From positions 930,001-994,000 of the forward strand of contig NC_043023.1 in assembly GCF_006345805.1 (NCBI RefSeq): a stretch of 64,000 nucleotides of DNA, in the 5' to 3' direction. The notes under the pieces were generated by a model. The model was not told the origin of the DNA and ran no database searches. It saw only the letters and a program-made list of their open reading frames with translations. Source of the DNA: Octopus sinensis (Eukaryota). Below are positions 6,762 to 57,537 of the stretch, piece after piece (the stretch's first letter is position 1; each line of letters begins with the position of its first letter). The translations under genes and the position numbers were made by a program.

Positions 6762-6800
<39 letters not shown>

Positions 6801-6805
<5 letters not shown>

Positions 6806-6963
6806 CATTTGTATATTTAGGGAAAAACCACTTGGTGGATAACCAATACACTAGAAGAAGATCATATACGATCTAACTACAAAGAAAAAAGATCGTATGT
6901 GATCTTCTTCTAGTGTATTGGTTCTCCACCAAGTGGTTTTTCCCTAAATATACAAATGTATAA
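6801..6963. repeat. Near-perfect palindrome, ~73 bp arms and ~15 bp loop, within (TA)n
   Basis: TTATACATTTGTATATTTAGGGAAAAACCACTTGGTGGA... mirrored by ...TCCACCAAGTGGTTTTTCCCTAAATATACAAATGTATAA. Confidence 0.9.
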
Positions 6964-6976
6964 TATATATATATAT

Positions 6977-7790: not shown

Positions 7791-7904
7791 AGAAGTTAGA
7801 AACCTTGTGATGAACCAGTGTCCTGTTCAGCAAGAAATACATACACAGTGGTGTCAAAAGGTTCCTGGACTATGATTGTATGTATGTATGCATGCATGTA
7901 TGTA

Positions 7905-8240
7905 TGTAAAGCTGGACTCAAGAGTCATCTTCGTAGTCATAAAACGAGACAGATGAGTGACAACCTGGTCACTGGTGGTGGTGTAACACACCATACTAAT
8001 CATATCTGTCGGGAATGTGGAAGAGAGTGTAATTTGGCGGGAGGACTTAAACGACATGCAAAGGTACATGAAGCCCAGTTACAACTACAGCTGGCTACTG
8101 CCGGTAAAGGTTTTATCTGCCAATTCTGTACAAGACATTGTAGAACTTTAGCTGGGTTAAAAAGTCACATTCGATCACAGCACCAATAACAGTTAAGCTT
8201 CGTGCAATGGCCAAACTCGATAACGAGGGGGCAGCCATCA
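7905..8240 (+). mobile_element. 5'-truncated LINE 3' end (RTE-like) encoding C2H2 zinc fingers
   Basis: AGLKSHLRSH, CRECGRECNLAGGLKRHAKVH, CQFCTRHCRTLAGLKSHIRSQH then stop, a short 3'UTR with CTCGATAACGAG hairpin, and (TGTA)n on both flanks; resembles RTE C-terminal GLxSHxRxH fingers. Confidence 0.7.
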
Positions 8241-12289: not shown

Positions 12290-12373
12290 TCGGTACAATT
12301 CTTTCGTACGAGGACATCTTTAATAAGCTACAAAAAATGCAGTAAATATAGATGGCTCGTACTCGTCAGCCGA
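12290..12373 (-). ncRNA. Type I hammerhead ribozyme motif (one helix III substitution)
   Basis: UCGG CUGACGA GUACGAG...CUCGUAC GAAA GAAUUG UA CCGA; 7 bp helix II base and 4 bp helix I. Confidence 0.75.
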
Positions 12374-16344: not shown

Positions 16345-16898
16345 TATAACATTAAGTGTAATAACTATGGACCAAGTTATATTATACTTAATTTTATCTT
16401 CATTCGGGTGCCACATAAAATCGGCCAAAGACGTTGAATGTCACTTATTGATCTTCTTGAAGCTGGTGACATGGTTGCGATAACTATTCTTAAACGAATC
16501 AGCTGTTTGTCCAATGTAAACATACGGCCTTCCCCTTATGTGCATCGTACATTTATATACCACATTTGTACTCATACAGAGGTTCATCAATGGGCATTTT
16601 GATTTTTCTATGCATGAGCATTTATCATATTTATTTGTATACATGGCAGTTCTGACTTCATTTCCTGATGTTGCTGTGTTAGCTATATCTTAATTATTTC
16701 TACTATCACAATTTGGCCATATTTAGTGATTTTGATTATGGTTTACATCTCCTTCATTGGTATTTAGATGCGTATGTTTGCTAGATCCAATAGGGGGGTT
16801 ATTGAACAGTTGTTGCATTTTATCCTTGTTCATGACGTGCATATACTGCTTTAAATTAGCAGAGTTAGAATAGGATACCTTCACAGTGTGCCGATTAT
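16345..16898 (-). mobile_element. Penelope-like element remnant: end of RT, Cys linker and GIY-YIG endonuclease (decayed)
   Basis: NRHTVKVSYSNSANLK, then CSCIEKSKCPLMNLCMSTNVVYKCTM...YVYIGQTADSFKNSYRNHVTSFK, typical of Neptune-type PLE VVY-YIG...FK.RY.NH. Confidence 0.8.
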
Positions 16899-17164
16899 AT
16901 ATGTACATTCATATATAGATGTATGTATAGGCATGTACATATATATATAGACACACACACATATATATATATATACAAATTAGTAAATAAATGGCACAAC
17001 TAAGTACCGATATTTACTGGAAATAGCGAACATAAAAATACGACGCTAATGTGTAGCTTCACCGCGTATGTATTAGCAAAAATGCGTGTGTGCAACAAAT
17101 TAGAGAAAAAACCGACTTACCTCCAGGGAGAACATCTGAAAGATGAAACACCCGGAAAAGAATA

Positions 17165-17242
17165 ATGTGGGACCTCCAGGTTTCAGGTTTTACAAGATAT
17201 GTCTCTCACCCATATTTTGTTTTACCTTCATCAGCCAAGCAT
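17165..17242 (-). ncRNA. Type I hammerhead ribozyme motif
   Basis: AUGcuUGG CUGAUGA AGGU...ACCU GAAA CCUggAGG UC CCACAU; intact core and GUC cleavage triplet. Confidence 0.75.
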
Positions 17243-17345
17243 ATACCAAGACGAAATCTACGATGTTACCACATTAATACTATCACACTCGACTGAAATG
17301 CAGAACGCTAACAGTACGAGAAACGGTGAAGAAGTTTCAAAATAT

Positions 17346-17502
17346 ATGTAGGTCCCGGGTTGAGTCGGGGTTAACCACAGTAAATAAGGTACTCAATACA
17401 TGGCAGAGTAAATTAATTTATTTATAGAGGAGCTTCTACAGGACTAGAACTGTTTCATTGAATGAAACAGTTCTAGTCTGTGTAGAAAGCTCCTTCTATA
17501 AT
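17346..17502. repeat. Fold-back element with terminal palindrome (17423-17500); relative at 40590-40705
   Basis: GGACTAGAACTGTTTCATT g AATGAAACAGTTCTAGTC; GTAGGTCCCGGGTTGAGTCGGGGTTAACCACAGTAAATAAGGTACTCAATA recurs inverted at 40650-40705. Confidence 0.7.
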
Positions 17503-17530
17503 ATAAATTATATTATATATATAGGATTGC

Positions 17531-22300: not shown

Positions 22301-22912
22301 GTATATGTATATATATATACTTTATAATTAGGGTTCAGCAAAGATTTGCTTTACCACATACCGAAGTTTAGAAATAGCAGCCAAAGAGCCTTAGCTATTT
22401 CCTCTAATTTTAGCCTTTGTTATTATGTATATATGTATATATATATGTAACAATTAATAAGAGGAATGACCATTAAAGTAGATTCCTAATATGCTAAAGA
22501 TAGAAGTCAAATCGCCTTACCATGAAGAGCATTTAAAGTCAGACGAGCTGTCCATGGAGCTAAGCCCAATCATCATCAACATCATCATCATCATCATCAT
22601 CGTTTAACGTCTGCTTTCCATGCTAGCATGGGTTGGACGGTTCAACTGGGGTCTGGGAAGCCAGAAGGCTGCACCAGGCTCCAGTCTGATCTGGCAGTGT
22701 TTCTACAGCTGGATACCCTTCCTAATGCCAACCACTCTGTGAGTGTAGTGGCTGCTTTTTATGTGCCACCAACACAGGTGCCAGACGAGGCTGGCGAACG
22801 GCCACACTCAGATGGTGTTTTTTACGTGCCACCAGCATGGAGGCCAGGCGAGCTGGATGGATGCAAAATCATTGGTCACTCTATGACCAGACATAGACTT
22901 AACTACATATAT
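21800..22912. mobile_element. Cluster of three degenerate copies of one hammerhead-bearing repeat, one split by an RTE 3'UTR (22570-22850)
   Basis: Consensus from copies at ~21862-21915 (-), 21985-22045 (+) and 22535-22882 (+): AAAGU CUGACGA GC..UCCAU...AUGGA.GC (G)AAA CCAUUGG UC ACUUU. Confidence 0.5.
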
Positions 22913-23192
22913 ATATATATCGATTATCTAAAACTTGTTCCAGTCATTTGACTGTGGCCATGCTGGAGCACCACCTCAAAGGATTTTAATCAAACTAATC
23001 GACCCCAGAACTTCTTTTCTTCAGCTTAGCACTTACGCTATTGGGTTCTTTTTGCCAAACTGCCAAGTTACAGGGACATAAACACACCAACACCAGTTTT
23101 GAAGCAGTGATGGAGGAACAAATAGAGACACAAAAACACACACAACATACATATACACATAGATACATACATAAATATAATATATATATATA

Positions 23193-23720
23193 CTCTCAAA
23201 CCGCTAATAGTTGTAATTCTGAAATTTTTTCTAGAATTTTTTGCTACCCTTATATTTATTAATTAATGATTTTTTGGCTAATTTTGAAATTAATTCAGCA
23301 GTTTATTTTTGCTGCTGAGAAGACCGCACGATTGCGGTAGATTTTGAAAATTTATAGCATATAGACTTGAGGCTTCCTTACCATCGCCTCGTGGATATAT
23401 GTTCGTCCTTGGCTTCTCTGCTGATGAGGCACGCCAGTTGTAAATAAATTTAATTTAACTAATTTGTTTACTAAAGTTTGCCGAAACTATGCATAGTCCA
23501 GAGATGAAAGGGTAAACGTTTTTATGTCTCTTTCAATTTCAGAATTACAACTATTTAGCGGTTTGAGTTTGGCTGGTCTTTCTAGTGAGTCGAATGTCCT
23601 ATTATGGCCATTCCTTATATTGTTGAATGTATATTATATAGTCTTTGACTATCTTTTCTCTCTCACTGGACCGCTGGTAGCGGAGAATTTTTTCTAGAAT
23701 TTTTTGCTACCCTTATGTTT
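23193..23720 (+). mobile_element. Non-coding Penelope pLTR/retrozyme-like element (~530 bp)
   Basis: 5' end 23193-23226 is an inverted copy of 23536-23568; 23223-23256 is directly repeated at 23686-23720; (TA)n flanks; contains an intact hammerhead. Confidence 0.7.
23415..23504 (+). ncRNA. Type I hammerhead ribozyme, canonical core
   Basis: UCUCUG CUGAUGA GGCA...UGCC GAAA CUAUGCAUAG UC CAGAGA; helix I 6 bp, helix III palindrome ACUAUGCAUAGU, predicted cleavage after C23498. Confidence 0.88.
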
Positions 23721-23731
23721 ATTATATATAT

Positions 23732-23734
<3 letters not shown>

Positions 23735-23773
<39 letters not shown>

Positions 23774-24478: not shown

Positions 24479-24629
24479 TAGAAGAAATAAGGTACTCAGA
24501 AATCTGGATGGTTTTATATTTACAGATATTTATTAGTATGTTACATGTTTTTATTAAAAAAATGTGATATATTAATAAAAATCTGTAAATATAAAACCAT
24601 CCAGATTTCTGAGTACCTTATTTCTTCTA
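24479..24629. repeat. Near-perfect palindrome, ~70 bp arms
   Basis: TAGAAGAAATAAGGTACTCAGAAATCTGGATGG... / ...CCATCCAGATTTCTGAGTACCTTATTTCTTCTA. Confidence 0.9.
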
Positions 24630-28199: not shown

Positions 28200-29214
28200 T
28201 AGGGTTGGCAACTAAGTTCCTGCCATTTATTAAAATCTAAATTTTTTAAAGGTTTAATAAAAAATAACAACTAATTAATCAATAATGTATTCACCGTTGT
28301 GGTTTTTTCAACTTCTTCCCAATGTTCAACAAGTTTTTCAATACCTCGTTGGTAGAAATTACCTGATTTCGACTCAAAAAATTGATCCAACCAAGCTCTC
28401 AAGTCTGCATCAGTATTGAACCAAACTCTGTGCATAGCATTTGAAAGAGATTGAAAGAGGTGGAAATCTGTTGGTGCCAAATCAGGAGAGTATGGCGGAT
28501 GTGGCAACATTTCCCAGCCATACGTTTGAATGGCTTCCTTGGTCATATTGGCAATATGAGGGTGGGTGTTGTGCAGCAGAAGAACCCCAAGCTCCCAATT
28601 AGGTCTTTTCTCTTGAACAGCCGTGTTGAGTCGTTCCATCTGTTGAACATCGTGTTCCACATTGACCATTTGGCAAACCAGCTGAGATTGTGGCTTGTTA
28701 ATTTTTGTTGTTGTCACTTAAAGCATGCAGAACCCATGCTCCATACTTCTGAAACTTTCCCATCGAGTGAAGATGCTTCTCTGTAGCAGTGTGGGAGTAT
28801 TCCATTTTCTCTGCCAGTTTCCTTTTCATTTGACAAGAATTTTTGTGCAAACTCAACTGGACGGCCAGAACATTTTTGAACTTGGCATACTAATCACGAG
28901 CTGTTCTTTCAGCTTTGGCACCGTCTCCATACACAATACACAGCTCAAATGTTGCAAGCATCTTTAGTGGCCTTAGAACCTTGATTAAAAGCAAAAAGAA
29001 GGAGGTGTTGAAAATGCTTGTTTTTCTTAACTTGACATTCCATTTTAATGATCTGAAAATAAACAACAATTAAGTAAAATTAACTAGAAAAAAAAACAAA
29101 ATAGATTCCAAAATGATTCAAAAATAGAATTCTCCAAAAAATAGATTCCAAAATTTAAAAAATGCTATAAATTCCAAAATTTAAATAACGTCTGGAACTT
29201 AGCTGCCAACCCAA
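28200..29214 (-). mobile_element. Decayed mariner transposon with TIRs
   Basis: TIRs GGGTTGGCAACTAAGTTCC (28202) / GGAACTTAGCTGCCAACCC (29194-29212), in (TA)n; transposase begins MECQVKKNKHFQHLLLFAF at 29043 and contains HPPYSPDLAPTDFHLFQSL; frameshifts and deletions. Confidence 0.9.
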
Positions 29215-29302: not shown

Positions 29303-29790
29303 ATGAGGGGTGTTCATTAAAGATTTTCTCCAAGGAAAGGGATAAACGAAAACTTGGCATAATTATTGGTCCTTCTCTACATAAACGCCACCAATGATGA
29401 CACACTTCTCCCATCGCTTTATACAGCTGTGAAGACCTTGTCTGAAGAAGTCAGTAGGTTGCGTCTGGAGCCAAGACTTTATCTCAGAAATAAGTTCATC
29501 ATCATCTGATAAGTGCTTCTTCTCCAAAAAGGACTTCATGGTTGGAAAGATGTGGAAGTCAGATGGTATGGGGTCAGGAGACTAAGGGATGAGGAAGGAT
29601 TTCATAGCCACAGGAGTGTGCTTTCACCTGGGCAACATCCACATTGGGAACTGACATGTTGTCTTGAAGAAGGCTTCTCTGCTTTAATGGCATCCTGCAA
29701 TTTCTGCAGCAGAGAAGCATGATATGCCTTATTGTTTGTGGTGCCCTTTGACAAAAAATCCATCATCATTACTCCACGCTAGTCCCATCA
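29303..29790 (-). mobile_element. Second mariner family, 3' fragment
   Basis: SPDPIPSDFHIFPTMKSFLEKKHLSDDDELISEIKSWLQTQPTDFFRQGLHSCIKRWEKCVIIGGVYVEK; TATGAGGGGTGTTCA TIR-like end. Confidence 0.8.
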
Positions 29791-34500: not shown

Positions 34501-35568
34501 GGAAAAGGTGACAAAATTGTGGAAAGGAAGAAGAAAGCATCGAATTGAGAAATTCTTACTATTCTTGTGTTTAAGAGAGGAGAAAAAGAGAGAATAGAAT
34601 TCTTTGTATTTATTTGAAAGTTTTATAAGAATTTAAGAGGAAAAAGAGAGAGAATGAGGTGGGTGGAGAATGAAGATTTTTAAATTCATTTCTGAGATTT
34701 GAAAGAACTTGACTCTTTTGCATTCAGATTATTTTGTCAAATGTAATATTTATTTACTCACATTGTTTTGAATTAATTAACCATGCACTATATCATAGCT
34801 TTCTGATTTCATTGATGTTAATGTTTAGTTTTAGAATGGCATTGTAAGGTAGGTGTGAGAGGTAGGATCTGATCAGTTTAACCATTTAGTATACAGATTC
34901 CTCGGTCAAATGTAATAATTATTTATTCCCATTGTTTTGAATTAATCATGCATCATCTTTTTTTTCTTTTTTACTCTTTTCCTTGTGTCAGCCATTTGAC
35001 TGCGGCCATGCTGGAGCACTGCCTTTAGTCGAGCAAATTGACTAAGCCTAGTACTTTGTAAGCCTAGTTCTTATTCTATCATTCTCTTTTGCCAAACCGC
35101 TAAATTACGGGGACATAAACACACCAGCATCAGTTGTCAAGTGATGTTGGTGGAGACAAACACAGACACACAAACATAAGCACATATATATATACATATA
35201 CATATATACGACAGGCTTCTTTCAGTTTCCATCTACCAAATCCACTCACAAGACCTTGGTCAGCCCGAAACTATAGTAGAAGACACTTGCCCAAGGTGCC
35301 ATGCAGTGGGACTGAACCCGAGACCATGTGATTGGTAAGCAAGCTACTTGCCACACAGCCACCCCTGCACCTATAAGATTTTGATGGTGTGATTGTTTAT
35401 TTTCAGAATGACATGTAGGGTGGCATGAGAAGCTAGATCTGTCCAGTTTGACCATAAAACAGAATATTAGGATCTGATATGGCGAGTTTATTCCTTTAGC
35501 ATTTAGATTACTCTATCAAATGTAATGCTCATTTATGCAGATTGTTTTGAAGTAATCAGTCTCAAGAA

Positions 35569-35805
35569 TTCAATGTGGTATAGTGGTTAAGAGCGCAGGC
35601 TACTAACCTCAAGATTCCAAGTTCGATTCCAAGTAGTGACCTGAACAATAATAATAATGATAACATCAAAAAATATCTTAGGAATGAGAACCCAGGTTCA
35701 AAATTTCCCCAAGACACCTGATGAAGGCTGGAGGGTATATCAGCCGAAATGTTGTGTGTAACAACAAACAAGATGAGGACAAATATCTGTCAAATGTAAA
35801 TAATG
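35569..35805 (+). mobile_element. tRNA-headed SINE type D with a minimal hammerhead (35713-35758)
   Basis: GTGGTATAGTGG A box, GTTCGATTCC B box; GACAC CUGAUGA A GGCUG...CAGCC GAAA UGUU GUGU. Confidence 0.75.
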
Positions 35806-36556
35806 ATGTGATGGTTTATTTTTAGAATGGCATTGTAAGGTAGGGGTGGAGGTAGGATCTGATCAGTTTAACCATTTAGTATACAGATTCCTCGGTCAAA
35901 TGTAATAATTATTTATTCCCATTGTTTTGAATTATCATGCATCATCTTTTTTTCTTTTTTACTCTTTTCCTTGTGTCAGCCTTTGACTGCGGCCATGCTG
36001 GAGCACTGCCTTTAGTCGAGCAAATTGACTAAGCCTAGTACTTTGTAAGCCTAGTTCTTATTCTATCATTCTCTTTTGCCAAACCGCTAAATTACGGGAC
36101 ATAAACACCCAGCATCAGTTGTCAAGTGATGTTGTGGAGACAAACACAGACAACACAACATAAGCACATATATATATACATATACATATATACGACAGGC
36201 TTCTTTCAGTTTCCATCTACCAAATCCACTCACAAGACCTTGGTCAGCCCGAAACTATAGTAGAAGACACTTGCCCAAGGTGCCATGCAGTGGGACTGAA
36301 CCCGAGACCATGTGATTGGTAAGCAAGCTACTTGCCACACAGCCACCCCTGCACCTATAAGATTTTGATGGTGTGATTGTTTATTTTCAGAATGACATTG
36401 TAGGGTTGGCATGAGAAGCTAGATCTGTCCAGTTTGACCATAAAACAGAATATTAGGATCTGATATGGCGAGTTTATTCCTTTAGCATTTAGATTACTCT
36501 ATCAAATGTAATGCTCATTTATGCAGATTGTTTTGAAGTAATCAGTCTCAAGAATT

Positions 36557-36790
36557 CAATGTGGTATAGTGGTTAAGAGCGCAGGCTACTAACCTCAAGA
36601 TTCCAAGTTCGATTCCAAGTAGTGACCTGAACAATAATAATAATGATAACATCAAAAAATATCTTAGGAATGAGAACCCAGGTTCAAAATTTCCCCAAGA
36701 CACCTGATGAAGGCTGGAGGGTATATCAGCCGAAATGTTGTGTTAACAACAAACAAGATGAGGACAAATATCTGTCAAATGTAAATAATG
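36557..36790 (+). mobile_element. Duplicate SINE type D with hammerhead (36699-36744)
   Basis: As 35569-35805; helix I GACAC/GUGUU. Confidence 0.75.
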
Positions 36791-37339
36791 ATGTGATGGT
36801 TTATTTTTAGAATGGCATTGTAGGGTAGATGAGATAAGCTGGACCCAGCCAGTTTGAACATAAAACCAGCCAGATATGGCTGGCTTAACACTTTAGCATT
36901 CAGATTACTCTGTCAAATAAGAAGCTTATTTATCCATTGTTTTGAATTAATCAAGCATTACCTTGTGGCTTCAAGATTTTGATGATGTGATTGTTTATTT
37001 TAGGAATGACCATGTTGGGTAGGTGTGAAAGGTTGGATCTGGTTGGTTTCAGCATTAAACTGTTAAACTATTTGGCCAGATTATGGCCAGTTTAATCCTT
37101 TGGCATTGAGATTATTCTGTCCAATGTAAAGCTTATTTATTCACATTGCTTTGAACTAATCACACATTATCTCATTGCTTTGAGATTTTGATGATGTGGT
37201 TACTTTTAGAATTACTAACAAAGAAAAGCAAGAACAAAGGAGGCAAAGAAAGACAGGGAAGCAAGGAGGGAGGAAGGGAAGGATTACTGAAAAGGGGAGG
37301 TAATTCGTATAAAGTTCTGTTCTGCTGTGATGATAATCT

Positions 37340-40560: not shown

Positions 40561-40719
40561 TTTATATATATATATATATATATATTTATTATATAGAAGG
40601 AGCTTCTATTGAGTACCTTATTTACTCTGCTAATAATTTAATTTACTGCTATGTATTGAGTACCTTATTTACTGTGGTTAACCCCGACTCAACCTGGGAC
40701 CTACATATATATAATATTA

Positions 40720-43376: not shown

Positions 43377-43485
43377 CTATAATAATAATAATAATAATAA
43401 TAATAGCTGATGAGAATGCATCGTAGTTCTTCACTCTGACTTCTGAAACTCTAAGTACTATAATGACAATCGTTTGTTCTAAATT

Positions 43486-44453: not shown

Positions 44454-44777
44454 ACAGATTTTTCTGCAAAATATGGGTAGTTTATCCTGTCCATGCTATA
44501 TTATTAGCTTTATCCTGTGTTTGAGAATAAAATTATTTCCTTATCTTTATCTTTCAATACATCTCAACACGTCTAAAGCAAACTTTGTTTACTTTCATTG
44601 TAATTTGAATTTAATATATATATATAAAGTTAAAGTTAACTTTTTGGCTCAAAAAGCAAAAAGCAAGGCCATGTAGGATATATAAGGTTAAGATCGTTAA
44701 TTTAAATTAAGTAACGATCTTATCAAGTGGCCAGCATGGAAATAAAAACCTTCAAAGGTAATAATTATTATTAAACT

Positions 44778-45202
44778 TTATAACTTATGGCATCTACGAG
44801 ATACCACCATGCTGAAAATAGCAGCCAGTAACTGACTCTAAAACCACCTTAAGTGTTCATATAGCACACGGAGAGAAGACAAAAAGACAAAATAAAACTA
44901 ATAAAAAATTAATGGATAATTCCAGTATGTATAAGTTCGTATATGTAAGTATTCGTATGTTGTAAATATACATATATATATATGTTACTATCTGAGTATA
45001 TTCCACTGATGAGGCAAAGCATTTCTTAATGCAAAGCCAGAAATCCGGGATCTAGAATTATCCAGTAATTTTTTTACTAGTTTCATCTTGTCTTTTTGTC
45101 TTCTCTCCCTGTTGCTATATGAACACTTAAGGTGGTTTTAGAGTTAGATACTGGCTGCTATTTTCAGCATGGCGGTATCTCGGAGATACCCTAAGTTATA
45201 AT
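44778..45202 (+). mobile_element. Fold-back element (~147 bp arms) with a hammerhead at 45000-45058
   Basis: Arms 44778-44924 / 45053-45202; AUUCCA CUGAUGA GGC...GCC A GAAA UCCgGGA UC UAGAAU, with the other arm preserving UGGAAU. Confidence 0.75.
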
Positions 45203-45262
45203 TTTATATATATATTTATATGTTAATATATATATATATAACCGTGTGTGTATATATGTACA

Positions 45263-48917: not shown

Positions 48918-48975
48918 TATATATATACATATATATATAATATATATATAATAATATATATATATATATGTATAT

Positions 48976-49347
48976 AAGGAAAAATAAGTCAAGATAGAAG
49001 ATGCTAAAATAATTTTATAAAAAACATTTTAGTACCGGTTTTGGTTATGGAGACTTTTTCAATTCTAAGTATGGAAAACAATTAAATTTTAGAAAAATTA
49101 AATGAAAAGTATTTTATAAGAATACTTGCATTAGTAAACAAGAGAGACAGAGACAGGCAGAAACAAGGAAAATGTCCCTTGTATTTGAATACTATGCAAA
49201 TATTCCTTTATAAATTTTTCCTTTAATTTTTCCAAAATTTAATTGTTTTTCATACTTAGAGTTGAAAAAGTCTCAATGACTGCAACTGGTACTGAAATGT
49301 TTTTTATAAAATTATTCTAGCATTTTCTACCTTGACTTATTTTTTCA
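48976..49347. repeat. Diverged fold-back element, ~160 bp arms
   Basis: GAAAAATAAGTCAAGATAGAAGATGCTA... / ...TAGCATTTTCTACCTTGACTTATTTTTTC. Confidence 0.75.
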
Positions 49348-49404
49348 TATATATATCAACTTGTGTGTTCCTTTACAACCTTCTACACACACACACACAC
49401 ACAT

Positions 49405-49439
<35 letters not shown>

Positions 49440-49442
<3 letters not shown>

Positions 49443-50119
49443 ATTTATAAAAATATGGTAAAGTAAAAAAATTCACTTTACCGCACACCGAACTTTTCAG
49501 AAATGGCAGCCAAAAATTTGGCTATTTCTTCAACTGCAAGTAAAAGTCTCCAGACAATGCATACTCAGAAAAATAACTCACATAGGTATAAGGGAAAAAC
49601 AATGAAAGATCACATCCATATAAGATACCCGAGAACAGCCTGTTTCTGGATTCGTGGGTTAAACGCCACTTTTCCTTCATCAGCTCAGAGATTTCTTCTG
49701 CTTTGGATTTGAAAATACTAAGGACCAAACATACCCATCCGATATCTGTAACATCGGACAAACTATGCTGGACACACAGTACTAGCGAATCCAAAAATAC
49801 AAATGAGATATCGGATATCGGATGGGTATGTTTGGTCCTTAGTATTTTCAAATCTAAATCAGAAGAAATCTCTGAGCTGATGAAGGAAAAGTGGCGTTTA
49901 ACCCACGAATCCAGAAACAGGCTGTTCTCGGGTATCTTATATGGATGTGATCTTTCATTGTTTTTCCCTTATACCTATGTGAGTTATTTTTCTGAGTATG
50001 CATGTCTGGAGACCTTTTACTTGCAGTTGAAGAAATAGCCAAATTTTTGGCTGCTATTTCTGAAAAGTTCGGGTGCGGTAAAGTGAATTTTTTTACTTTA
50101 CCATATTTTTATAAATTAA
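49440..50119. mobile_element. Young fold-back element, ~305 bp near-identical arms, each with a hammerhead
   Basis: Arms 49440-49746 / 49814-50119; hammerheads at 49871-49932 (+) and 49628-49689 (-): UCUGAG CUGAUGA A GGA...UCC A GAAA CAGgCUG UU CUCGGG. Confidence 0.85.
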
Positions 50120-50210
50120 TACTTCAAATATACTGTAAATGGTCCTTTTACATACCGAATACTGCTTGGTCGAATTGATTAACAATTAATTAATTCTACC
50201 CTTTTTTAAT

Positions 50211-50241
<31 letters not shown>

Positions 50242-50453
50242 CTATGATCTCCCTTTTAAGTAGAAAGAATAGCCAAAACATTTTGACTGCTATTTCTAAA
50301 TTCGGTGTGTGGTGAGGCAAATCGTTGCTAAACCCTTAATTACTTAGTATTACTTAAACCTTCCTTGAATGGGGCTTTTATATGCCGAACTCTACGTGGT
50401 GAAATTAATGATTATTTCTAAATTAATTAATTTCACCCTTTATTATTGATAAT

Positions 50454-50501
<48 letters not shown>

Positions 50502-50975: not shown

Positions 50976-50996
50976 GATGTGATATATTACATACAT

Positions 50997-51120
50997 ATAA
51001 GAGGGATGAACTGTAAGTGGACATCCATTATGCTAGAAGAAGATCCACTATGGTCTTACCACTAAGAAAGGAATATTCTTATAGCATCAGGGATGTCCAC
51101 TTAGTGGTCATCCCTCTTAT
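50997..51120. repeat. Imperfect palindrome, ~50 bp arms
   Basis: ATAAGAGGGATGA...TAAGTGGACATCC / GGATGTCCACTTA...TCATCCCTCTTAT. Confidence 0.8.
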
Positions 51121-51552
51121 ATTTATATAATATAATTTTTTCAGAAACTTCAAATTTTTCTATATGTTAGACCACTGGTTTCAAATTGATATTAATCAAA
51201 TTATTATTCAAATTTTCACCCTTATTATTTTTAATTTATATGTTATGTATAGATTTATCTCTCTTTCTCTTTGTCTCTGTTTGTCAGTCTGTCTGTCTCT
51301 GTCTCTCTCTCTCTCGTGTTAATGATTAAAGACTGACGATGAGCAAATTAGCTTGAAATTGAGTCAGTCATGTGATCCTGTCGTCTGCTGGGGGATCATA
51401 GGGGTTCATTCACCTGCTAGCAATATATATGCACAGGGTGCAGTGCTACAACGATAACCGGCTGGCGGAAGATCTGCCTAGGGTTAAACTAGTAGTAACA
51501 TAGAACAGCCACTTTGATATGGTGATTAACTTTACTTGTTTTAATACATAAA

Positions 51553-56160: not shown

Positions 56161-56278
56161 GGTGACCCAATAAATTGATACATATAGAGAAAGGAAGACA
56201 TGGATGGATAGAAAATAACACATAGGTAGACAGAGGTTGGAAGATGGATAAATTGATAGCTACAGATATAAACAGATA

Positions 56279-56592
56279 TCAAAATAAGCAACAAGGATAT
56301 GCAGAGGTAATGCAGTACGATCGTTTCATGCGACTCCATTTAATTGAACAATGCAATCATTTCATTACATCAATTTAATATGTAGAGCAATCTTCAGCTG
56401 CACAAACACATATAGAATTTAATTTAATTATACTAATGTTTCCATCTGTTCTAATTTAATTAAATTCTATGTCTTTGTGCAGCTGAGGATTGCTCTGCAT
56501 TTTAAATTGATGATTGTATTGTTCAATTAAATAGAGTTGCATGAAACGATCGTACTGCATTACCTATGGGTATCCTTGTTGCTTATTTTGAT
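56279..56592. mobile_element. Fold-back element with a hammerhead in each arm
   Basis: Plus 56478-56559 UGCAG CUGAGGA UUGC...GCAU GAAA CGAUCG UA CUGCA; minus copy 56311-56402 has CUGAAGA. Confidence 0.8.
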
Positions 56593-57537
56593 TTTAATCA
56601 ACTTACTTAGAAATTGTATGGATAATACCATACTAAATTCTGGTGTCTCAACTCAAGTACCATATTCATCTGAATCTAAATTTTTGCTGATATAAACAGA
56701 TATAAATAGATAGACAGAGGTAGTTAGATAATAGCTATCCATCTACCCATCCATGTATCTAAATATGGCAGCGTAAGAAAAGAGGAAGTTGGAAAATTTA
56801 TTGGTACTGTTTATTCATCATTACATATCTCTCTTTCTCTTTTACTTCTTTCAGTAATTTGACTGTGGCCATGCTGGAGCACCGCCTTTAGTCAAGCAAA
56901 TCGATCCCAGGACTTATTCTTTGTAAGCTCAGTACTTATTCTATCGGTCTCTTTTGCCGAACTGCTAAGTGACGGGGACATAAACACACCAGCATCAGTT
57001 GTCAAGCAATGTTGGGGGGACAAACACAGATACACACACATATATATATATATACATATATACCAAATCCACTCACAAGAGACTATATTAGAAGACACTT
57101 GCCCAAGATGCCAAGCAGTGGGACTGAACCCGGAACCATGTCAGGGTGTACACGAATCATGAAAATACCTCATGGAGTGGTGACTATGCCCTGAATACTT
57201 ATGGGTTGCATTTGTTCAGATTCCTGCCAGGGATATGGTGAAGCTGTGGGACTGCAACATGGTAGATTGTGGTGGGGTAGTGGAAGAGCAGAACTGAACA
57301 TCTTACGTAGATGCTGAGCAGAGGAATCCCTAGAAGATCAACAGTGAGGACCACCAAGCTTTATCAGGGGAGTAACTGCAATAGGCTATCCAAAGGCTTT
57401 GTGTCTGTGGTTGTGTGGTCAGCTATTGAAAGACTCACTATGACTCAAGCTCCCAATTCAGATGGAATTGGGTGGTGAGAAAGAGAGAGTCACAGGAGTC
57501 TGTGCAAGCAGTGTGACCAACTGGACATGTTAGGGAC

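Follow-up and report, generated by a model that had tools for sequence, protein, structure and literature searches.

The 64,000-nucleotide stretch of Octopus sinensis DNA analysed here (the window) carries at positions 23193–23724 a hammerhead-bearing insertion whose origin from a Penelope-like element (PLE) is very probable, whatever template it was copied from. The link appears to narrow to the Hydra clade of PLEs in view of the (TA)n target, the type and position of the hammerhead, and a remnant with a CxCX5C linker elsewhere in the window. The favoured explanation, held at about even confidence, is a recent one-event insertion by the reverse transcriptase (RT) and GIY-YIG endonuclease of a Hydra-clade PLE, which would have copied the hammerhead-bearing 3' end of a linear RNA. 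The readings weighed against it are a retrozyme copied from a circular or tandem RNA, host repair of a plain truncated end, and chance similarity or an assembly artefact. The features of the locus are collected in Table 1.

Table 1. Features of the insertion, its hammerhead and the protein remnant in the window
Feature	Position	Strand	Remarks
Whole insertion	23193..23724	+	inverted stub, 39-nt upstream copy of the end and 463-nt hammerhead unit
Left (TA)n target tract	23180..23192	.	a target-site duplication is indistinguishable inside the microsatellite
Inverted stub	23193..23226	-	reverse complement of 23535-23567; two extra outer bases
Microhomology, 4 nt, between stub and upstream repeat copy	23223..23226	.	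at the inversion junction
Upstream copy of the element's 3' end (miniature pseudo-LTR)	23223..23261	+	begins within the 5' arm of the terminal hairpin
Non-coding unit, 463 nt	23262..23724	+	strongly structured; hammerhead strand
Type I hammerhead	23415..23504	+	predicted cut after C 23498
Helix II with extension	23428..23482	+	4 bp, mismatch, 2 bp, internal loop, 11-bp outer stem
Helix III, perfect 12-nt palindrome	23486..23497	+	
Internal segment, template of the stub	23535..23567	+	3' edge is a candidate second RT start, ~155 nt before the end
Terminal hairpin, 16 bp, GGU...ACC closed	23676..23711	+	~11 nt before (TA)n
Downstream copy of the 39-nt repeat	23686..23724	+	true 3' end of the element
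Right (TA)n tract and, beyond it, the (ATC)n tail of an abundant, unrelated repeat	23723..23773	.	
Broken C-terminal remnant of a Hydra-type PLE protein	16363..16896	-	CxCX5C linker, GIY-YIG-like endonuclease; not part of the insertion

The two copies of the direct repeat are identical at 38 of 39 positions with a period of 463, and their ungapped score of 35 exceeds the maximum of 15 obtained from 300 shuffles. A preliminary description of this DNA had placed a terminal direct repeat of ~34 bp at both ends; its presence and period hold, but the repeat is 39 nt long and its 5' copy lies inside the inverted stub rather than outermost. A target-site duplication is ruled out as an explanation of the repeat, because stub sequence derived from the element lies outside it. 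The stub (23195–23226) matches 23535–23567 as its reverse complement in 32 of 33 columns, and the gapped match of 52.7 bits is above all 300 shuffles (maximum 26.5), which bears out the earlier claim that the stub is an inverted internal segment. The claim rests on the gapped match, because the ungapped 21-nt part alone is equalled by the best of 300 shuffles. Repeat and stub each carry one difference from their source, which at a quoted rate suggests an age of a few million years, a very rough figure drawn from two events. Both flanks of the insertion are (TA)n.

Coding sequence for RT, the CxCX5C linker or GIY-YIG was not found within the element, and 150 relatives of the endonuclease remnant gave no match inside it. 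A 66-codon open frame (23497–23694) was rejected as a gene, as it is without homologue. Splice-like signals, namely donor-like hexamers and a pyrimidine tract with AG, lie 3' of hammerheads at 23512, 23527–23542 and 23585 (+) and at 17120–17017 (-); such signals are common in AT-rich DNA, and PLEs keep introns.

The order of an inverted stub, a short upstream copy and a downstream copy is the textbook PLE arrangement, and the connection to Penelope that the preliminary description drew from the inverted stub is supported. In PLE insertions as described, a partial tandem stands next to an inverted copy truncated at its 5' end, and there is a tail of 30–40 bp (PMC8557442); the 39-nt repeat fits this tail size, and the offset between the two ends of the element is ~155 nt. 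Penelope of Drosophila virilis and Poseidon of Anolis share with the octopus locus the partial tandem, the pseudo-LTR, the inverted 5' copy and a terminal repeat of 34–37 bp, and in both, as proposed here, RT starts internally at a stem-loop and at two sites (PMC2377424, PMC11167929). In the Anolis PLE, the tail is the stretch between the two stem-loop start sites (PMC11167929). In these two elements, as described, the end falls within the start of the ORF and the sites are 30–40 nt apart, whereas here the end is non-coding and the ends are ~155 nt apart (~80–100 nt in the siblings).

The hammerhead of the insertion is of type I, with the CUGANGA, GAAA and NUH elements arranged around three helices and helix I open. 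Its core consists of CUGAUGA (23421–23427) and GAAA (23483–23486), with a GUC cleavage triplet whose C17 is at 23498. Helix I has 6 bp (23415–23420 with 23499–23504) and basal helix II has 4 bp (23428–23431 with 23479–23482, G10.1–C11.1); these are canonical sizes (PMC4209133), a point in favour of a retrozyme. With a score of 16, this motif ranks first among 10 descriptor matches in the window, as compared to a mean of 0.06 matches and a best score of 12 in 100 block-shuffled windows. The canonical core, the GUC site and the 12-nt palindromic helix III noticed at the outset are thus confirmed by sequence and descriptor score. The term 'perfect hammerhead' applies to the core but not to the periphery, where helix II is capped by a 47-nt extension and not by a small loop. 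The outer stem of this extension has 11 bp (23440–23450 with 23461–23471), and 47 nt lie between the basal strands. The extension also argues against a retrozyme, in that it replaces the small loop 2 used for tertiary contact by canonical retrozyme hammerheads. Rfam gave no match in the whole window at gathering score and no hammerhead family at E up to 10 in the 2 kb around the motif, probably because of the long helix II.

Helix III was calculated at +0.4 kcal/mol as the 4-bp hairpin of a monomer and at -15.9 kcal/mol as the 12-bp duplex of a dimer. The active hammerhead fold lies 1.4–2.1 kcal/mol above the minimum, whether locally, in the linear unit or in the circle, and 5.4 kcal/mol above it with the stub. 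In a model without tertiary contacts, its share of the ensemble comes to 0.03 when computed locally and to 0.002 when computed in the 463-nt unit; a predicted share of 0.03 or less would speak against the truncated linear end. Self-cleavage after 23498 is plausible, and would be most efficient in a dimer held together by the palindromic helix III. According to Cervera and De la Pena 2014 (PMC4209133), PLE hammerheads with a palindromic helix III act as dimers, and circular templates were proposed there.

The 463-nt unit folds at -130.2 kcal/mol with a z of -5.5, and none of 100 shuffles was as good. The z is -5.4 without the terminal hairpin, as compared to -2.2 on the opposite strand, and this strong folding of the hammerhead strand favours a retrozyme. 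Six sibling arms gave z values from -3.0 to +0.4 (15 shuffles each), and a lower fold than that of the unit was recorded in 4 of 56 background windows, each of which overlaps a long inverted duplication. As a circle, the unit reaches -123.9 kcal/mol, a weaker fold than that of its linear form, and this argues against a retrozyme.

The motif GGU...ACC closes the hairpin at six insertion ends, namely 23711, 45190, 50200, 50437 and 61364 (+) and 22332 (-). At these ends the hairpin is followed by a short AT-rich stretch and then by (TA)n, and the stems vary in sequence and length between insertions. ACCCT closes a GGU...ACC hairpin at 6 of 7 sites beside (TA)n, as compared to 2 of 67 elsewhere in the window; the p-value of 1e-6 for this link is overstated, as the motif was defined after the sites had been seen and three of the six are related. 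When the (TA)n condition was dropped, a permissive scan for GGU...ACC hairpins showed no enrichment, with 10 sites where shuffles average 8.8. In the siblings at 49.4–50.2 kb and 61.0–61.4 kb, one arm ends about 80–95 nt before the hairpin end, and the stub at 23193–23226 ends ~155 nt before the element end. By analogy, the terminal hairpin may mark the RT start site, and the octopus families would have longer tails than those published. An internal hairpin at 50334 matches the end at 22332, which suggests two end sites ~100 nt apart in one family.

The Hydra clade is characterized by a CxCX5C linker, insertion into (TA)n and canonical hammerheads, and it includes Hydra-1_Obim of Octopus bimaculoides (PMC8557442). 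The insertion resembles this clade in its (TA)n target, in the type I hammerhead with palindromic helix III within the last few hundred bases, and in its presence in Octopus; an inverted 5' copy is also noted for one published family. The hammerhead lies 87–425 nt from the 3' end in 24 Hydra families and at the 5' end in one more (PMC8557442 Files S1/S2, subtracted here), and the corresponding distance in 23193–23724 is ~327 nt, with ~173 nt to the stub end. The insertion differs from the clade in that it holds no RT or endonuclease coding and in that a second copy of its 3' end stands 160 nt 5' of the hammerhead; loop 2 has 47 nt as compared to 3–10 nt in the published Hydra families, and helix III has 12 nt as compared to a near-palindromic 8–10 nt (PMC8557442). 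The published distances from hammerhead to end fall mostly near 90–105 or 170–210 nt (PMC8557442), and these clusters may represent two end sites ~90 nt apart as a feature of the clade. Octopus vulgaris is reported to be rich in PLEs, 31 families of which were active recently (PMC13282606).

The protein remnant at 16363–16896, 6.3 kb from the insertion, reads CxCX5C and then a YIG motif, and its 3' side is cut by an abundant repeat. At a cut-off of E 0.001 the remnant has 247 relatives, and CxCX5C is present in 118 of the 150 examined. One relative of 759 aa, in which an RT-type YRDD precedes linker and YIG, matches the remnant with an E of 1e-14; this relative led to no useful solved structure and is without the RWK motif named for Hydra, the latter being a point against the truncated Hydra-clade end. 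The Atlas gives GIY-YIG as a lead for the closest relative (19% of cluster members), and Pfam GIY-YIG matches 1 of 12 long relatives. An assignment of the remnant to Neptune was dropped in favour of Hydra on the linker definition. Of the 264 frames in the window that run for 55 aa or more without a stop, 169 were searched with Pfam and showed no RT or GIY-YIG, which is a weak negative because the same search missed the remnant. The spacer of a palindrome at 49749–49812 (+) resembles by eye a decayed GIY-YIG start, and tblastn with Hydra-type relatives gave no match. The open frame in the most abundant repeat of the window has its one match among 448 candidates in an Argonauta hians hypothetical protein, which makes an octopod host probable.

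Further hammerheads are located at 12369 (-), 17234 (-), 45006 (+), 49683 (-)/49877 (+), 56397 (-)/56483 (+) and 61218 (-), with a weak match at 43407 (+), and they belong to six unrelated families. An alignment of 8 of the 10 descriptor matches, without the second arm at 49683 and the weak match at 43407, showed an invariant core at a mean column identity of 53%. The helix II region measures 27–63 nt in all eight, and the helix III palindrome measures 8–12 nt, six being perfect and two having one mismatch. Head-to-head inversions with the core on one or both arms occur at three sibling loci (44761–45219, 49438–50121 and 56278–56592), in favour of the linear PLE end. Related copies are stacked at one (TA)n site (49438–50216 and 50259–50456), and the sibling units are simply truncated at varied points 5' of the core, two observations that count against a retrozyme. 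The unit at 17234 was considered as a second short monomer and dropped, as a TA remnant separates its two parts.

Several neighbouring sequences were recorded alongside. The sequence at 40586–40710 (+) copies part of the 17340–17510 piece at 94%; it carries a short inverted stub, is flanked by (TA)n left and right and has no hammerhead, and so represents a minimal insertion of stub plus end. Long palindromic insertions without a hammerhead match (6800–6975, 24479–24629, 48968–49356 and 50983–51134), several of them in (TA)n, are probably head-to-head ends of other PLE families. At 56260–56700, an inverted pair is seemingly flanked by a ~15-nt repeat that could be a target-site duplication. Two copies at 35570–35800 and 36555–36790 (+) show a head that is tRNA-like by eye, followed near 35715 and 36704 by a minimal-hammerhead-like motif with one core change; both lie within a 98% tandem duplication (34813–36828) that may be an assembly artefact, and ARAGORN reported no tRNA. 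The window also holds Mariner-type transposase fragments at 28274–28717 (-) and 29605–29778 (-) (Pfam DDE_3, weak, and Transposase_1) and an open frame with C2H2 zinc fingers at 7800–8186 (+) (Pfam E 3e-6).

According to the favoured explanation, the GIY-YIG endonuclease would nick the (TA)n tract, and RT would start just 3' of the terminal GGU...ACC hairpin (~23722) and copy 463 nt to 23262. It would then restart at the same end site and copy 39 nt before stopping inside the hairpin. A second cDNA of 33 nt would be primed from the other strand at 23567, and the two cDNAs would be joined via the 4-nt microhomology, giving the usual PLE order of inverted copy, truncated upstream copy (pseudo-LTR) and downstream copy. 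This order of events and these start sites are read from the arrangement of the copies and are presumptive. The stop 160 nt 5' of the core would need no coding sequence, because Hydra 3' UTRs hold roughly 130–330 nt of non-coding sequence between the stop codon and the hammerhead, as judged by eye only from the consensus ends. The explanation is weakened by the lack of nucleotide or protein homology to a named PLE, the Hydra consensus having been compared by eye only, and by the contrast between published tails of 30–40 nt and a stub end ~155 nt before the element end. Moreover, the downstream copy is full-length in the partial tandems described, which favours 463 nt as the full unit.

A second reading takes the 463-nt unit as a complete non-autonomous non-LTR retrozyme derived from a Hydra PLE end, of which a Hydra RT would have copied 1.08 turns of a circular or tandem RNA; this is a serious possibility, short of an even chance. 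Tandem transcripts would self-cleave after 23498, the monomers would circularise, and priming of the stub would take place on the same RNA, 118 nt upstream. The 23261/23262 junction is seamless and has no (TA)n remnant, an observation which favours the retrozyme and counts against the truncated linear end. The stub template, a gap of 118 nt, the repeat and the full unit likewise follow one another in the order expected of two-site priming on a tandem RNA, as in the twin-priming model known from L1. The ~460-nt circular or tandem template suggested in the preliminary description is consistent with this geometry, but it is opposed by the single copy in the window, the absence of a terminal repeat in the 11 other units compared and a circular fold no better than the linear one.

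It has been argued that retrozymes derive from PLEs and that many of their monomers are dispersed (PMC7229834; bioRxiv 10.64898/2026.07.22.740005), and families of 51–972 bp, occurring as dispersed monomers and derived from pLTRs, agree with the retrozyme reading (bioRxiv 10.64898/2026.07.22.740005), as do the 450-bp hammerhead tandems of Drosophila willistoni (PMC4209133) and the published Penelope solo ORFs between two 34-bp repeats, described as complete copies. The unit is non-coding, within the 50–1000 nt size range of retrozymes and strongly self-paired. It shares with metazoan non-LTR retrozymes, as reported, a non-coding length of a few hundred nucleotides, low GC, a type I hammerhead, self-pairing and co-occurrence with PLEs (PMC7229834; bioRxiv 10.64898/2026.07.22.740005). 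It differs from them in that it is not a tandem of at least two hammerhead units, has a PLE-type inverted stub and has a non-canonical loop 2.

The retrozyme reading is also opposed by the presence of one hammerhead in 1.08 units, with no tandem array and no second or permuted copy of the element in the 64-kb window, and by the absence of a terminal direct repeat in all 11 other units compared there. A partial tandem with an inverted stub is, in addition, the ordinary form of PLE insertion. Hammerhead cleavage was unneeded for insertion in the one PLE tested in vitro (PMC11167929), and 8 of 9 predicted Xenopus retrozyme dimers were reported uncleaved (bioRxiv 10.64898/2026.07.22.740005), both of which count against the retrozyme. 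Searches for exact 20-mers in GTDB genomes returned 0 matches, and distant blastn in plasmids and phages returned none. It is less likely than not that the locus is a 463-nt cephalopod retrozyme bearing every mark of insertion by Hydra PLE enzymes, namely the (TA)n target, a start at the conserved terminal hairpin, more than one turn around a circular RNA and the inverted stub, and that its hammerhead belongs to a very large octopus class, so far without a count, in which helix II is extended and which current models miss; if true, it would constitute direct genomic evidence of PLE enzymes mobilising retrozyme circles.

It is improbable that the locus is a plain 5'-truncated PLE end to which host repair added the repeat and the stub by microhomology-mediated templated insertion from new cDNA or DNA. 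Both pieces are short, have their sources within 500 nt and meet at a 4-nt microhomology, and the one difference that each shows from its source indicates that all parts are similarly young, as such repair would have it. The upstream copy, however, ends exactly at the family end common to five other insertions, and inverted arms ending ~80–100 nt before the hairpin end recur in the siblings, so that the machinery of the element itself is indicated. An assembly artefact, or mere chance resemblance in AT-rich DNA, suggested by the richness of the window in microsatellites, an N gap and the 98% tandem duplication at 34813–36828, is hardly credible, as hammerhead, repeat and stub exceed the shuffle controls, the core is invariant in the eight aligned motifs at a mean column identity of 53%, and repeat and stub differ from their sources, unlike a collapsed-read artefact.

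Earlier papers already describe hammerheads at the ends of PLEs, the layout of the insertion and retrozymes derived from PLEs. What looks new is the formation of helix II as a long stem-loop in all eight aligned hammerheads and the GGU...ACC hairpin at six insertion ends; octopus hammerheads with extended helix II or a shared terminal hairpin are not described in the literature covered, a coverage outside which lie most subscription journals and Repbase reports. The helix II extension is not unique, since loops of ~30–35 nt are listed for two plant PLE-X families (PMC8557442). A published hammerhead descriptor, which allows up to 10 nt in loop 2 and two bases in helix III, would miss the extended motifs on account of these limits.

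Should the insertion prove to be no more than the truncated 3' UTR of a Hydra element, it would be a common transposon fragment. As the extended hammerheads escape both Rfam and the published descriptor, octopus ribozyme counts may be far too low; the density of about one motif per 7 kb is a figure from a single window and not a genome-wide number. The locus and its siblings bear on how PLEs produce tandem and inverted insertions and on which enzyme moves animal retrozymes, and they offer as handles a conserved 3' hairpin as candidate start signal, ends ~80–155 nt apart and one insertion longer than its unit.
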